Source: Hydrolagus colliei (lineage: Eukaryota). Taken from it: a stretch of 64,000 nucleotides of DNA. This document shows positions 8,270 through 35,683 of the stretch, one piece after another; within the stretch, counting starts at the first letter, position 1; each line of letters begins with the position of its first letter. Position numbers and translations under genes: made by a program. The stretch lies in the NCBI GenBank assembly GCA_035084275.1, contig CM068742.1, forward strand, positions 142,476,001-142,540,000, written 5' to 3'. The notes beneath the pieces were generated by a model, which saw only the letters and a program-made list of their open reading frames with translations, had not been told where the DNA came from and made no database searches.

Positions 8270-10465
8270 TCTCCTCCTCCACCCCCCACCACCCCGCACA
8301 CCCTCTCAGGTGCCTTAGAGTCATCTGAACTCATCCCCAATGACCTATCCCCCTTGATAAGTCTCCCCCACAACTCTCTCTCCACTATTCTCGATGCCCT
8401 TACTCCTCTCATTTCCAGAACCGCCTCCTAATGACGGTCGACACGCTGGTACACCAGCCACCTCTGCTCCCTCAAGGTACAAGTGAGTGCCACTGAACAC
8501 ACCTGGATTAAATCGAATTTAACAGTCCATCAGAGGATCTGGCTGGACCTTATCAAATCTTACTATTCTCTCCTCACCTCCACTAAATCGTCCTACTCTC
8601 TGACAATCTTGGAGGCTAGGGACAACCTCAGGCTTCTCCATCACCAATGGGTTTCTCCTCCCACTCTCTCATGCCTCACCCATTCTCTCCTCCAAAGCCA
8701 ACTGCAATGAGATATTGGACTTTCTCAAACCAAAGTCAAGGGGAACTGCTTAGCTGCTTCTGCCCTTCCATCAACTATCCCCTCGCTAGCTCCCCCTCAC
8801 ATCCGGCGCCTACCCATCCCTCCCTCCACACCTTCAAAACATGTTTCCCCCTCTCTCACCACCACTATAACCAGCATGAAACCTCAGTCCTGATGAAGTG
8901 TTGTAGACCCGAAACGTTGACTCCTTTTCCTTTCTCCGTGGATGCTGTTTGACTTGCTGAGTTTCCCTAGCAACTTTTATTTTTGTTTCAGATTCCCAGC
9001 ATCTAAAGTATTTTGTGTTTTGCTTAAATTACCTCTCCATTTCTAACTTCCCCTTCCTTTTCAAGGTCCTGGAAGGGATAATTGCTTTCCAGCTTCGCTC
9101 CTTCCTCTCATGCCACTCGCTTCACAAATCCCTCCCATCAGGTTTCCATTCCACCCTCAGCACAGAAACAGCTTTGGTCAAAGTGACAAATTATAATTTG
9201 TCCATCTGCGACCAGGGCTCCCTCTGACTCCTCGTTCACCTTAATCTTTCTGCTATCTTCAATACCATTGACCATTCTATCCTTCACCACTGCCTTTCCT
9301 CTCACACCGTTTCAGATCCTACCTCTCACAACATTTCCACTTCATCCCCACAAATGATTTTGCCCCCAGCCCCCACACTGTCTTGTGTGGTGTTCCTCAG
9401 GGCTCTCCTCTTCTTCAATATCTACATGTTCCTCTTGGTGACATCATACGCAGACATGGGGTTGAGTTCCACATCTTTGTAGATGACATGTATCTCTACC
9501 TTTCTGCTTCCACCCTCAACTCCAGGACCACTGCTATCCTTACAGAATGTCTCTGAGACATCAAGTACTGGATTAGAGCTAACTTTCTACAGTTGAACTT
9601 CAACAAGACCGATGCCCTTCTGGTTCCTGTCAGCATCTCCACACCTCAGGCACTGACAGCATCACCACCCAAGGATGCACATTCCACTTTACTGAGGCAG
9701 TCCAGAAACTTGGCATCTTATTTGACCCTCAACTGCCTTCATACTTCACATCAGTGCCACGATCTACTCCGTCTTTCCCCACCTCCTCAACATCGCTCAG
9801 CTCCGCCACTCTCTCACGCTGCCGAGTCCCTCATACGCTCATTGCTTTGAGACGTCTAGAAGACGTGAAAAGTGCTGCATCAAATGCAATGATTATTATT
9901 ATTATTATTAGTTATAACATTCAGGTTCAACTTTGCAAACGGTATGCCCGCCAGCCTCCCCAACTCCTCCCTCTACAGCCTACAGATCATCCAGAACTCT
10001 GCAGCCTGTGCCCTGCACCAGGCTCCGCAACCCCATCATCCCCATCCTTGCCTGACTCCACTAACTTCCCATCAAACAGAGGATAAAGTTCAAGATCCTG
10101 GTCACCTTCAAAGCCCTCCATGGCCTTGCTTCTCACTACCTCTGTGACCTTGTAACACCCTACCAACCTGCTTGCTCCCTCTGCTCAGTGGGCAAAGGCC
10201 TGCTTCATGTTCTCTGCCTCACCTATCACACTATTGGTGGTTGGGCCTTCAGCCACTTTGCCCCCACCCTCTGAAATTCCATCCCGCAGTCCCTTCGCCT
10301 CACCACCTTCCTTGCCTCCTTCAAGATCATGCCTTTGATCACACTGCTTCCCCTCACCCTCCATCTTCTCCGATCTCGACTCCCAGCTCCTGGCCGAAAC
10401 ACTGATTGTGCAGCACCATGGGATGTCCTCCCGATGTGAAAGGTGCTATACAAATGTAATTTTGT
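8270..10465 (+). mobile_element. Degraded L2-clade LINE (RT region to 3' tail) with nested insertions
   Basis: RT remnants STETALVKVT, GVPQGS, HIFVDD; L2 tail at ~10410-10465. Confidence 0.8.
8860..9022 (+). mobile_element. Penelope-like terminal fragment with degenerate hammerhead core, nested in the L2
   Basis: CTGATGA...GACCCGAAACGTTGAC then TTTCTCCGTGGATGCTG; related copy on minus at ~40765-40860. Confidence 0.55.
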
Positions 10466-10570: not shown

Positions 10571-11635
10571 TGGTATGTTGTTGTAGGTGAACAGAGAGTG
10601 AGCGACAGAGAGAAAGGGAGGAAATGAGAAAGAGAGAGAGAGGGAGACACATACACACACACACATAGAGAAGCAGGAGGCACACATGCATGCAGAAAGA
10701 GGTAGAGAGGCAGAGACCTTAATGTCCAGAGAGGGAAAAGCACTGTGAAAATATATTCTGGTTAATAGTCCACTTTCAGGTAGTAGTAATTCTAAAACTA
10801 TTCTCCACAGGAGTAGAATAAAACATCGTCAAACTAGCAATTTCCATAGCATGAGACCATTGCAAAAGCAGCAGCTGTAGATAATAAGGTTCATAACCTG
10901 CAACGTCGGTAACTAATGTCCCACTTAAATACTGTATTTAACAATTTCATTATTTCCATATGTCTATGGGAAGGACACATCAGTCACCATGAAACCATAC
11001 AGATTAATGTTGCAGGGTTGATTCCTGCGCAGTGTTAGCTCCTCTCAGGCCTGGGCAGTCATTGGAACATGACAATTGTTCTCAGTATTAACGGGTCAAA
11101 CAGCCAGGATTCCTGCTGTGTAAATGGTGCACGATGGCAGGAAAAGCACCTTGGAAAATAAAATGTGTGAGCCTGTCTCTCTCTTTCTCTGTCGATGGAC
11201 TTACTTGACAATTAAGCATTGTTTTCAATACCATTATATTTTAAAAGTATGTTTCAGTGATTTATAAATTGCTGAAGTGAACAACTCCAAAATCTCCAAT
11301 GAAATCCTAGCAATTTAGCATTACTGGATGACCACATTGATGGTGGTAGGGCTTAATTTTCCTTACAGTACAGCTATATGAAAATTGAAGTTAAACTCAC
11401 TGACAAATGTCTGCCTTTTGCCTTTGATTAGACAAAAAGAATCAATAAATCATAATAAAATAATCCTTGAATTTGAATGTGGAGAGAGTGCAGGTGCTAT
11501 CCTGCACTCTCTCCACCTCGCCTGGCGATAGATGATATTTTATATTTGATATCATCTATTTAATCTAATATTTGATCTAATAGTAATATTAGATATATAG
11601 TGATTTTTTTTTCACACGGACAACCCGCTCCCGAG

Positions 11636-11800
11636 GCTAGAGATCTTCGGGCTGGAACGATCGCGGGGACAGAGCTTTCACGCTGTGCACCGCTCAGCCC
11701 ACCAGCTGGAGCCGGCTTCCATCGCTGCCGGTTCTTCCTCTATGGGCAGTCGGCCAACGAATACCATCTTTTTGGGACGACGGGGAGGATCACGGAGGGA
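11636..11800 (+). pseudogene. PEBP-family (PEBP4-like) coding fragment
   Basis: [36 protein letters not shown] resembles recalled PEBP4 [36 protein letters not shown] (GxHRY motif degraded). Confidence 0.75.
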
Positions 11801-11938
11801 ATGGCGGCCACTCGCTGTCGGCGCTTCCTCCGGCTGTGCGAAGAGTGGCCCCTCGACAGGACCTGGGTAGGCCGCGACCTCGGCACTTTCCTCAGGCAGC
11901 GGGTGGCGCACGTCTTCCGCGAGGGGGAGAGCGCCCAG
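11801..11938 (+). pseudogene. UQCC2: UQCC2 (MNF1) N-terminal 46-codon fragment
   Basis: [46 protein letters not shown] vs recalled human [46 protein letters not shown]; no other UQCC2 exons found. Confidence 0.9.
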
Positions 11939-11945
11939 GTGCTGC

Positions 11946-12058
11946 AAGCGACGGATCATCTCGCGGGAGATCCAGACGGCGATCGGGCTGCTGCTGCTGC
12001 TGCTGTGCGAGCTGGCCAGACACACCGTGTCCGAGGTGCCAGGGCCATCACAGAGTCC
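11946..12058 (+). pseudogene. Histone H2B C-terminal fragment, frameshifted, with (CTG)6 expansion
   Basis: [38 protein letters not shown] vs H2B [37 protein letters not shown]. Confidence 0.88.
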
Positions 12059-12869
12059 CCAGGTTCACCGACTGAGGAGCCGGTCGGTTTGGGGGCCTGA
12101 CACCACACTGGGCCCTTTTTTCCGCGCCCTTTTTTTCCCGCCATCTCAGGGATCGTCCGGGCGGGCGGCGAGGACAGGGAGTGGTTGCTGGACGATTGTT
12201 GGTTATTGTTTGTTGCTGTTTTTGTTGTTAATATTATTGCTTTTGTTGTTTATTATTGTTTATTATTGTTGTTTGATTCCCCCCACCCCTGCCCCCATTT
12301 TCTTCTTCCCTCACTCCCTTTCCCCACTTTCTCTCCTCCCTTTTCCCCTTCCCTCCCTCTTCCCTCTTCCTGATCTTGCCCCCTCCCATCTTTCCCTCCC
12401 TCTCTTCCTTGCCCCTCTTTCTCCCCCCTCTTCCTCCCTAACCCTAACCCACCCCACCTTTCCCTCCCTCTCCCCCCTTACCCTCTTTTCCCCCTTTCTC
12501 CCCTGGCCCCATTTTCGCGATTGTTTGTGGGGACACTGCTGTGCGCAATTTGGCTGCCGCGTTTCGCCCACAAATATACAGTCGACTTTCCTGCCATTTT
12601 TCCCCCTGCCTCGACCCCTCCCCTTTTGCTTCTTTAGCCCCTTTTGCCCCTAGTCCCACTTCCGTGACTGATTGTGGGACACTGCTGTGCGCAATTTGGC
12701 TGCCATGTTTCGCCCACTAATACAGTTACTTTTCCTACTATGCTTTATCCTGCCCTGATCCTTCCCACCCTGTTCTTGTCCTACCTGACTGTACAGCGCC
12801 TTGGGATGTCCTCTCGACGTGAAAGGCGCTATATAAATGTAAGTTTTGTTGTTGTTGTTGTTGTTGTTG

Positions 12870-13140
12870 ATATAGCACTTTTTAGATCTGCTAGACATCT
12901 CAAAGCGTTTCACAGAATATACTGTAAAGTAGATTGACCATATATTTGTGGGAAAAACGCGGCAGCCAATTGTCCACAGCAGTGTCCCAACAACAGTTAT
13001 GGATGGAAGTGACCAATTTTCTTATTTGTTTTTCTTGAGGAATTATTATCAGGCGTGTGGAATAAGAAGGTTTCTCCCTACTGGGAATCAAACCTAGGTC
13101 TTCCGCGTGCAAGGTGAGTGCTCTAACCACTGAGCTACAA
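12870..13140 (-). mobile_element. tRNA-derived L2-tailed SINE; its tail end is displaced to 11452-11476 by the insertion
   Basis: Head GTAGCTCAGTGGTTAGAGCAC, core GGGACACTGCTGTG..., same family as 45488-45792. Confidence 0.85.
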
Positions 13141-33656: not shown

Positions 33657-33830
33657 ATGGTAAATTGGTCATTTCAATCCACGACTGTTCGTGGGACACT
33701 GCTGTGTGCAATTGGCTGCCGCGTTTCGTCCACAAATATACAGTCTATTAACTTTGCAGTACATTCTGTGAAGTACTTTGAGATGTCTAGAAGATGTGAA
33801 AAGCAATGTCCCAAATGCAAGGATTATTAT
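33657..33830 (+). mobile_element. 5'-truncated SINE, same family
   Basis: Core plus tail. Confidence 0.8.
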
Positions 33831-34017
33831 AGCAATGTCCTCAAACCCAGATTATTATAGCAATGTCCTCAAACCCAGATTATTATAGCAATGTCCTCAA
33901 ACCCAGATTATTATAGCAATGTCCTCAAACCCAGATTATTATAGCAATGTCCTCAAACCCAGATTATTATAGCAATGTCCTCAAACCCAGATTATTATAG
34001 CAATGTCCTCAAACCCA
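33822..34017 (+). repeat. Minisatellite, 7 perfect copies of 28-bp GATTATTATAGCAATGTCCTCAAACCCA
   Basis: Directly visible 28-bp period. Confidence 0.95.
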
Positions 34018-35683
34018 GAAGAAGCCAGATGAATCGACAATTTTGATTTAACTACTTCTTCCAGTGGATACATCAGTGAAAAGGATTGCCCAAGAGACAG
34101 CGGAGGCAGATTGTATTACCAATTACAAAAGGGAATAGATGTGTCCATACTGATGGCAGAGAATTTGTGGGGAGAAAGAAATAGCGAAGAACAACAACAA
34201 CAAAATTACATTTATAGAACGCCTTTCACATCGGTAGGATGTCCCAAATGGTAATGATGTTTTACAAACATGTACACTCCTGTGTTTTTAAGCTATGTCA
34301 TGTCTAGAAATGCTGTCCAAAGCAAATCGTCGGGTTTTATTCTTGCAGTTTTTAATACCTGTTACAAATACACAGTTGGTCCTACTTTACAATATATCCT
34401 GTGAAGGGCATTGAGATTTCTCATTGGTGTGATAAGGCACTATATAAAAGCAAGAATGATTAATATTCAGTGAGCAATATAATGCAATTTTTTATCCCAA
34501 AAATCAAACCACACTCAATGGCAAAGTGATCATTTTTCAAAATGGCTAAAGTGTTAATGTTAAATGGAACTGAATTCAGTTATGACAGACTACAATGAGA
34601 ACAGGTGGCTTTCGTACAGGATAATATCTTTTGACATTTACAGAATAACCGCCTATCAAATACAATTAAAATTCTTTACATCTGTCAGAATCATAATTGA
34701 AATCAACAAACCAAAAGATTTCTAAACTGAAACTCTCTCTCTGGAGGCGAGGCATTTAAGGGGCTTTGAAAATTATGAAAAGTTTAATAAGGTGGACATA
34801 CATATGCTGTTTCCACTTGTTGGTGTGTCTACAACAAGCGGGATTAAATCTAAAATAGCCAGTAGAAATCCTAAAAGAGATTAGGAGGAACTTTTTTTTT
34901 CACAAAGGATGGAAAGAATTGAGAACTCACTGAGAGAACTTGTGATTGAAGGAGAATGCATTCATCTATTTAAGAGGAAACTCAATGTATACACAAGGGA
35001 GAAGAGATTCCTCTGGAGTATAAACACAGGTTTAGCCTATGTTGGGCTAAATAGTCTGTTTTTTATGTTGTAGAGTCTCTGTAATTCCATTTAAGTCGCA
35101 GCCAAGATGTTACAAGCTGGAGAACTGCAAAAAAGAAAAACTAATGGGGCATAACCTAAAGGTAGCCTTTGGCTTCAAGGTCCAGAGACATTTGATAACT
35201 ACTATTCTCCTCTTCTATGCAACAGCTAACACCAGATATATATTTAATTAAATGAAACTCTGCTTTAGCAGATGTGTGGGGCGGAGGGGAGGTTAAGAAG
35301 ACTCGATTCATTTGCCATATTTGCCAACTAGAACTTGCAATTCATCATGAATTACAATTTCTGGTTTGCAAAACTTCGGGCTCACGAATCCCAAACTAAA
35401 ATCCATACAATGATGGAGAAGAAACAGTCAAGGGATTCACAATTTGTGCACCATGAATCTCACAAACTGGATTACATAACAAACTCAACATATTCAGTTT
35501 GTGAATAACACAAATTAGCCCCCACCCAGGATACTACAGATAGACAGAATTCAAGAATCTTTCAAAGTATCATTGTTATTTCACACTTCAGCCAGGTGTG
35601 CTCAGTGACTAGGTGCTGGACTGACAGAATCATTCACCTATTTTTTTTTAAAAGCAACATTTATTCCATGTTCAAATTGTTTA

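Follow-up and report, generated by a model that had tools for sequence, protein, structure and literature searches.

Introduction

ADAR-linked A-to-G hyper-editing has been described for the avian retroviruses RAV-1 (Felder 1994) and ALV (Hajjar and Linial 1995), as cited by PMC8586724, where clustered A>G changes are ascribed to ADAR acting on RNA that is later reverse-transcribed. Likewise, retrotransposons with long terminal repeats (LTRs) carry the 'DNA editing' fossils of APOBEC enzymes, i.e. deaminase bursts kept in genomic copies as one-way, strand-biased clusters of changes relative to the subfamily consensus (PMC4866542, PMC2873906). Here, we analyze a stretch of 64,000 nucleotides from the genome of Hydrolagus colliei (assembly GCA_035084275.1, contig CM068742.1, positions 142,476,001 to 142,540,000 of the forward strand; hereafter, the window), which contains a copy of a non-LTR retroposon built from exons of the host genes PEBP4 and UQCC2 and from a piece of an H2B variant. 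These captured pieces exhibit a strong, strand-specific excess of A>G changes, which, we believe, most likely reflects repeated ADAR-type deamination of the element's RNA.

The present case departs from the avian retroviruses in that the element is a non-viral, non-LTR one residing in the germline, with edits that would be inherited, fixed in a founder, multiplied to hundreds of copies and followed by repeated later events. From the APOBEC fossils, which are plus-strand G>A changes arising from deamination of complementary DNA, mainly in LTR elements, it differs in showing A>G on the RNA strand with the neighbour order of ADAR; the fossil screen of Knisbacher and Levanon, as described in PMC4866542, kept G>A only. 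In its architecture, the element resembles SVA_F1 (MAST2) and the chimpanzee STK40-SVA (Damert, PMC6139936), which are composite non-autonomous subfamilies formed by splicing host exons on, with further captures at the 5' end. The lineage, the partner long interspersed nuclear element (LINE) and the modules are different here (there is no Alu, variable number tandem repeat or SINE-R), three captures follow one another serially on an H2B-derived core, and the abstract of PMC6139936 makes no mention of editing. Finally, the holocephalan short interspersed nuclear elements (SINEs) CmiSINE and SacSINE1-CM, with their L2-2_CM tail (Luchetti et al., PMC5499810), probably have the same kind of LINE-derived 3' tail, as judged without a Repbase alignment. 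Our element differs from them in lacking a small-RNA head, in carrying host exons, in its length of 1.4 kb and in its young age. A heritable, re-amplified, ADAR-edited non-LTR family was not found in a search of the open-access literature. ADAR-type hyper-editing is known for retroviral proviruses, and relative to the literature searched, its heritable fixation in a non-LTR family would be the new aspect.

Results

The copy in the window extends over about 1.39 kb of the forward strand, from 11479 to about 12869, and ends in (TTG)n. Its bounds are sharp, with 29 other loci aligning across them. The segment 11600-12300 has 1391 candidate matches in its own genome, with identities of 93-100% among the 40 that were scored, while searches with the parent exons return at least 277 and at least 316 copy candidates and a UQCC2 profile returns at least 283. 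For the analysis of individual copies we aligned 145 of them, namely 85 (merged from 112 loci, with 18 parent or older-family loci set aside) and a further 60. These were picked by best score and are hence a non-random sample, in which two members, L269 and L271, have a common flank. Their mean divergence from the consensus is 2.2%, and 5' truncation is common. The family is a young, non-coding, non-autonomous non-LTR retroposon. Nearly every one of the 145 copies is, across consensus positions 125-700, its own mosaic of diagnostic variants, including sites other than A>G, which amounts to frequent template switching or gene conversion. Because the haplotypes are mosaics, we counted changes site by site and set a tree of copies aside.

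The three captured fragments all run in the sense direction, and for each of them the same genome contains a source. PEBP4 exon A (46 nt; 11636-11681, parent L098) is joined directly to exon B (117 nt in the parent; 11682-11794, parent L093), which ends at the parent's splice donor. The PEBP4 parent lies on C44, and its nearest named homolog is that of Callorhinchus milii (74-78%). There follow a 144-nt part of UQCC2 exon 1, running from an AG in the 5' untranslated region to the donor (11795-11938, with an ATG at 11801; parent L031 at C29:7.65 Mb), and the frameshifted 3' end of an H2B variant (11939-12075), which comes from an older H2B-bearing retro-element. The 4.9-kb PEBP4 intron is exactly absent between exons A and B, and the element has therefore passed through an RNA intermediate; such a step also fits the LINE-type tail and the 5'-truncated copies. 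Both the junction within PEBP4 and that between PEBP4 and UQCC2 are exact, with the host donor joined to the position right after an AG. At the UQCC2/H2B junction UQCC2 again ends at its donor, yet there is one extra G, and microhomology is possible. In other words, capture is SVA-like, with host splice donors joined to AG. No source element was detected downstream within the host genes, in 55 kb after PEBP4 exon B or in 45 kb after UQCC2 exon 1, and one might lie farther away or have been lost. Judging from the nesting of element families, the order of capture would have been H2B, then UQCC2, then PEBP4. Two other candidate sources were rejected: L037, which is an upstream PEBP exon, and the canonical H2B clusters.

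Changes were counted over 381 unambiguous sites aligned with the parents (88 A and 64-65 T). Left out were an A-rich stretch closing PEBP4 exon B (a 6-nt deletion with ambiguous alignment, whose inclusion would add A>G), a CTG repeat, one H2B indel block and those H2B sites at which the intact gene and the older element disagree. Among the 41 changes in the window copy, 25 are A>G, as against 5 C>T, 3 A>T, 2 T>C, 2 G>A and four other single changes (binomial p = 1.1e-4). An A>G excess in all three fragments, as proposed in the initial annotation on the basis of conserved residues, is indeed present, amounting to 14 of 19 changes in PEBP4 (3 of 3 in exon A and 11 of 16 in exon B), 6 of 12 in UQCC2 and 5 of 10 in H2B, the weakest of the three. 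The 33 changes fixed in the family are distributed in the same way: 21 are A>G, 4 C>T, 2 T>C and 2 A>T, while G>A, T>A, A>C and G>T occur once each (p = 5.6e-4 for A>G against T>C), and 7 of the 11 variants at 10-90% frequency are A>G as well. Altogether, 28 of 88 parental A sites are affected (16/41 in PEBP4, 6/28 in UQCC2 and 6/19 in H2B), and 12 of the 13 A>G changes in whole PEBP4 codons alter the amino acid. A>G thus outnumbers T>C about ten-fold (25:2 in the window copy, 21:2 among fixed changes), and the parents, with one exception, carry A, so neither equal rates nor parents already bearing the derived residues can account for the pattern.

That exception concerns one of ten A>G examples originally listed, asparagine 44 to serine in UQCC2, where the parent already has AGC; the other nine are borne out. 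In PEBP4, Y>C is TAT>TGT and Q>R is CAG>CGG. The motif HRC was likewise reached by A>G, through two such changes and one T>C, starting from HHY rather than from the HRY assumed at the time. In UQCC2, Y6>C is TAC>TGT (A>G plus C>T), and T45>A holds against the parent. In H2B, both K>R changes, T>A and K>E hold, with K>E inside the excluded indel block; the few changes reported in the reverse direction are also real, two G>A being present relative to the intact H2B gene. As an aside, the PEBP4 motif is HHY in this genome (L093) and in C. milii (P0002), while all 12 other aligned homologs have HRY.

The direction of change can be read in two of the three genes. At nine coding sites of exon B, the junction codon among them, C. 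milii PEBP4 keeps the parental residues H, Y, N, T, H, Y, Q, E and Q, so it is the element that has changed and not the PEBP4 gene. For H2B, direction comes from the agreement of the intact gene with the oldest retro-elements. None of 30 A are changed in the element's tail, and 73 generic SINE ends show no A>G excess (A>G 37/893 versus T>C 57/1042). Finally, once both outlier copies are removed, rare A>G outnumber rare T>C to the same extent whichever chromosome strand a copy lies on (31:12 and 31:13); the excess tracks the strand of the element. Fixed G>A, on the other hand, number one, the longest G>A run is 3, and the plus-strand G>A clusters of APOBEC DNA editing do not occur, which sets that process aside.

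The H2B part allows one to look further back. Locus L131 (C194:23.5 kb) encodes an intact H2B variant of 147 residues, whose core is divergent and whose N-terminal tail is long and rich in Ser and Arg, and several related variants lie on the same contig. At C28:8.41-8.70 Mb (L114-L130, L132-L134) there are about 20 tandem-like, decayed H2B-variant retro-elements with the same tail, a few of which keep frames of 93-106 residues. The series runs from the intact gene through the H2B retro-elements with the same tail (the C28 cluster and dispersed ones) to an intermediate dispersed family. A>G makes up 11 of 20 changes on the branch to that intermediate family and 9 of 19 on the branch to the present consensus; a sister branch has 0 of 13, all of them C>T or G>A. 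The H2B part acquired A>G in at least two older stages. The proposal that the RNA was hyper-edited before insertion is supported, the intron-free RNA intermediate included, with one correction: the changes are not the edits of one insertion, since 21 A>G are fixed in the family, 7 segregate at 10-90% and those in H2B date from at least two older stages. The intermediate family (L136, L138-L143, L213-L221) also has an A>G cluster of its own, together with three A>T that yield a run rich in pyrimidines ahead of a CAG, close to where UQCC2 was later joined. It is a matter of speculation whether edits helped to make the UQCC2 capture site.

When changed adenines are grouped by their 5' neighbour, the fractions are 5/8 (0.62) after U, 10/20 (0.50) after A, 11/33 (0.33) after C and 2/27 (0.07) after G. 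The 5'-neighbour preference of ADAR is U>A>C>G, and the ranking found here is the same. In particular, the depletion of 5' G predicted in the initial annotation is pronounced (2/27 versus 26/61 for the other neighbours, Fisher p = 0.001), and such depletion is part of the ADAR motif (PMC4365171, PMC2873906).

Further evidence comes from clustering in individual copies. Runs of five or more A>G occur in 9 of 145 copies, representing 3 events; there are no such runs of T>C, and no other type of change forms runs longer than 3. Seven copies at different loci carry one common burst in the AU-rich hairpins near the 5' end (11528-11612; in L010, 12 of 14 differences are A>G, one being a common polymorphism), from which it follows that edited RNA integrated and was then copied again. 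L027 is a separate event, with 10 of 11 changes A>G. So is L265, at C2:89.839 Mb, where A>G accounts for 13 of 16 changes in the 5' part and for 24 of 31 overall relative to the consensus, the burst extending into PEBP4 and UQCC2; here a 5' G precedes 1 of 13 changed A as against 21 of 36 unedited ones (p = 0.0025). With L234, a fourth outlier with 8 rare A>G, there are four independent bursts among the copies, one of them re-amplified to seven copies. Single bursts comprise 10-13 A>G within about 125 nt, accompanied by 1-3 other changes. Correspondingly, A>G counts vary more among copies than a Poisson process would give (mean 0.56 per copy, variance 1.69), unlike those of five other classes, which are Poisson-like. 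In L265, 13 of 49 A sites are changed over 275 nt, a proportion near that of the fixed changes in the captured exons. The fixed set could therefore stem from one or two events of this kind per capture, or else from many small rounds.

Discussion

We consider it quite probable that ADAR-type deamination of duplexed element RNA, fixed by LINE reverse transcription, occurred repeatedly in a lineage that went on moving. The sequence of events may be pictured as follows. A composite retroposon, presumably transcribed by RNA polymerase II and mobilized by a LINE, would have grown at its 5' end, starting from an H2B retro-element and taking up first UQCC2 exon 1 and later the pair of PEBP4 exons, with splicing responsible for at least part of this growth. 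While the element's RNA was double-stranded, perhaps through pairing with antisense RNA of other copies, a deaminase of the ADAR type would turn many adenosines to inosine. The LINE reverse transcriptase would read inosine as G and so produce a DNA copy with A>G on the sense strand. Since the captured pieces need not code, edited copies would stay mobile and could become founders of lineages. The result would be a ratchet, with some edits entering while H2B was the only captured piece, others being added in the founder of today's family, and later bursts following in single copies and in one subfamily. The captured exons would have been free to change, and the tail either constrained or unpaired. 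As for the enzyme, A_deamin (PF02137) matches are found at 5 host loci, among which ADAR, ADAD and ADAT1 are not told apart.

That said, a number of observations weigh against this account. ADAR editing comes with an enrichment of 3' G according to PMC4365171, and no such enrichment is present among our changed sites (8/28 = 0.29, like other neighbours). Pooling the three AU-rich bursts leaves the 5'-G depletion borderline (p = 0.06), and the intermediate H2B stage by itself is not significant (A>G:T>C 11:2, p = 0.09). Neither a homolog search nor a PDB search gave an outgroup for UQCC2, so its 12 changes are unpolarised, and some of those other than A>G are possibly parent-side. The substrate is a further difficulty. 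Namely, the 5' stems are short (11-21 bp), no long duplex partner was found for the gene fragments, and none of 145 loci has an inverted piece of the element's 5' half beside it, where these are insertion sites and not source loci. Predicted pairing is equal at changed and unchanged A (0.44 versus 0.42, p = 0.81). What is more, ADAR1 is reported not to have edited L1 RNA in cells (PMC5224506). ADAR as the enzyme is thus an inference from DNA. Contigs of run X1, at 99% likeness, span the insertion junction of L265 and not its hyper-edited part (L265:1192-1433), and contigs of this kind lose rare repeat variants; the L265 burst, like the other single-copy bursts, is accordingly known from the assembly. 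Finally, two features of the rare variants also count against it. Strict singletons show an A>G excess (19 versus 3 T>C) with a 5' G at 9 of 19, i.e. with no 5'-G avoidance, and A>T outnumbers T>A among rare variants (36 versus 17), a skew that plain A-to-I editing does not need. The latter could stem from the reverse transcriptase misreading inosine or from some other process.

Both features of the rare variants, together with the fact that the excess tracks the element strand, would suit a biased reverse transcriptase, in which the enzyme of the partner LINE, or an imbalance of deoxynucleotides, puts C opposite A and the errors accumulate over cycles. We regard this as improbable, although it keeps the most ground among the alternatives. 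The same enzyme copies the tail, where no A is changed, and probably also the generic SINEs, which show no excess; moreover, bursts as dense and as pure as those observed, as well as the U>A>C>G order, are unexpected from such errors. Reverse transcriptase error may, however, explain part of the low-level background.

A slightly less probable alternative is that master copies were selected for low adenine or high G+C, be it through escape from HUSH, which targets A-rich sense strands (PMC11295320), of A-rich intronless transcripts, through a CpG-rich internal promoter or through a more stable RNA fold. Indeed, an A is lost in 24 of the 33 fixed changes, a CpG arises in the 11 of 28 A>G that come after C, and the observed set is slightly more stabilizing than random A>G sets (5 of 60 being as stable). 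This stabilization is not significant, however, and PMC11295320 reports no direct link of A content to expression. Moreover, selection cannot make bursts in copies that lack a sampled sister (L265, L027 and L234), nor can it make 5'-G avoidance. It may have favoured some edited copies over others, the changes themselves having another origin. In this sense, reverse transcriptase bias and selection may add to editing, not replace it.

Transcription-linked DNA damage, hitting adenines in the non-template strand of very actively transcribed master loci, seems very improbable to us. The directions, with A>G above T>C and A>T above T>A, match those of germline transcription asymmetry, but that asymmetry is known to be well below two-fold and unclustered, while here the excess is ten-fold, in bursts and with almost no C>T. 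Least credible of all, and already largely refuted, is the view that the element underwent GC-biased conversion or that its parents drifted from G to A by CpG decay: a parental CA corresponds to CG in the element at 11 of 28 sites, and the mosaic copies do imply that conversion or template switching occurs, yet 17 of 28 sites are non-CpG, fixed T>C number 2 and weak-to-strong transversions 1, and the parental state equals the C. milii protein at nine sites, with the parents otherwise barely differing from the element.

If editing of the element RNA is the correct explanation, its implications reach beyond one family. As a rule, RNA edits are not passed on to offspring. The family described here suggests that retrotransposition can carry A-to-I edits into the germline of a vertebrate and amplify them hundreds-fold. 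The unedited parent exons persist in the same genome, so the edits can be read and given a direction, as is rarely possible for repeats. It thereby becomes testable whether ADAR mutates non-LTR elements, given the work on L1 in cells that saw no editing. A simple screen suggests itself, in which A>G takes the place that G>A has in the published searches for APOBEC editing. For families of this kind, moreover, repeat ages and trees computed under the assumption of strand symmetry will be inaccurate. With somewhat more weight for it than against, we would generalize that ADAR acts again and again as a mutator of non-LTR retroposons in the germline: the RNA is exposed to editing whenever the element is copied, edited copies found subfamilies and the lineage moves one way, from A to G. 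If this were true, the genome would hold a layered record of germline ADAR activity, the one-way drift might aid escape from duplex sensing or from silencing based on A content, and the phenomenon may be common, yet unsearched, in vertebrate genomes.

Structure of the Element and Its Surroundings

All features described here lie on the forward strand of the window. The element begins with a terminal hairpin (11479-11521), which in full-length copies has a 21-bp stem; in the window copy, its first 9 nt or so are missing. In L003, folding gives z = -10.6 for the 5' 191 nt. The 6-nt loop (11495-11500) is found in both orientations, in 47 versus 29 copies, and this flip-flop points to fold-back or to a switch of templates at the 5' end. 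The AU-rich short hairpins that follow contain two 11-bp stems and are the burst site in the seven-copy subfamily, in L027 and in L265; the window copy is not hyper-edited here. A linker ending in AG (11613-11635) stands ahead of the PEBP4 exons, and neither the fetched PEBP4 locus nor a pattern search gave a match to it. In the 5' head no transfer RNA (tRNA) and no credible Rfam match were found (one chance match, E 0.7). With no tRNA, 5S or 7SL head, the element is not a classical SINE, and its internal T runs would be expected to halt RNA polymerase III. Six copies (L233, L261, L267, L269, L271 and L274) are 5'-truncated near one base in the UQCC2 part, at about 11821 of the window; five of them start at consensus 332, two with a common flank. 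This is possibly a pause site or an artefact of how the copies were found.

Downstream of H2B there is a linker with TTG/TTA-rich sequence and a C/T-rich low-complexity tract (12076-12472), followed by two related segments of about 150 nt (12473-12766), 76% alike and common to abundant SINE-type repeats, which we take to be 'Deu-like'. The LINE-type 3' tail (12783-12869), with zero fixed A>G, is common to a decayed LINE at 8950-10465, which has reverse-transcriptase motifs, a weak RVT_1 match (E 0.036) and a 3' end, at 10465, matching the tail. We assume the tail to be of the L2 kind, a label for which PMC5499810 also served as a guide. A reversed SINE-type repeat adjoins the element at 12870-13140. 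ARAGORN finds no tRNA in it; its head is presumably tRNA-like, going by resemblance. Elsewhere in the window, at 33802-34019, a 28-nt tandem repeat of 7.8 copies (97% matches) adjoins a SINE-type segment.
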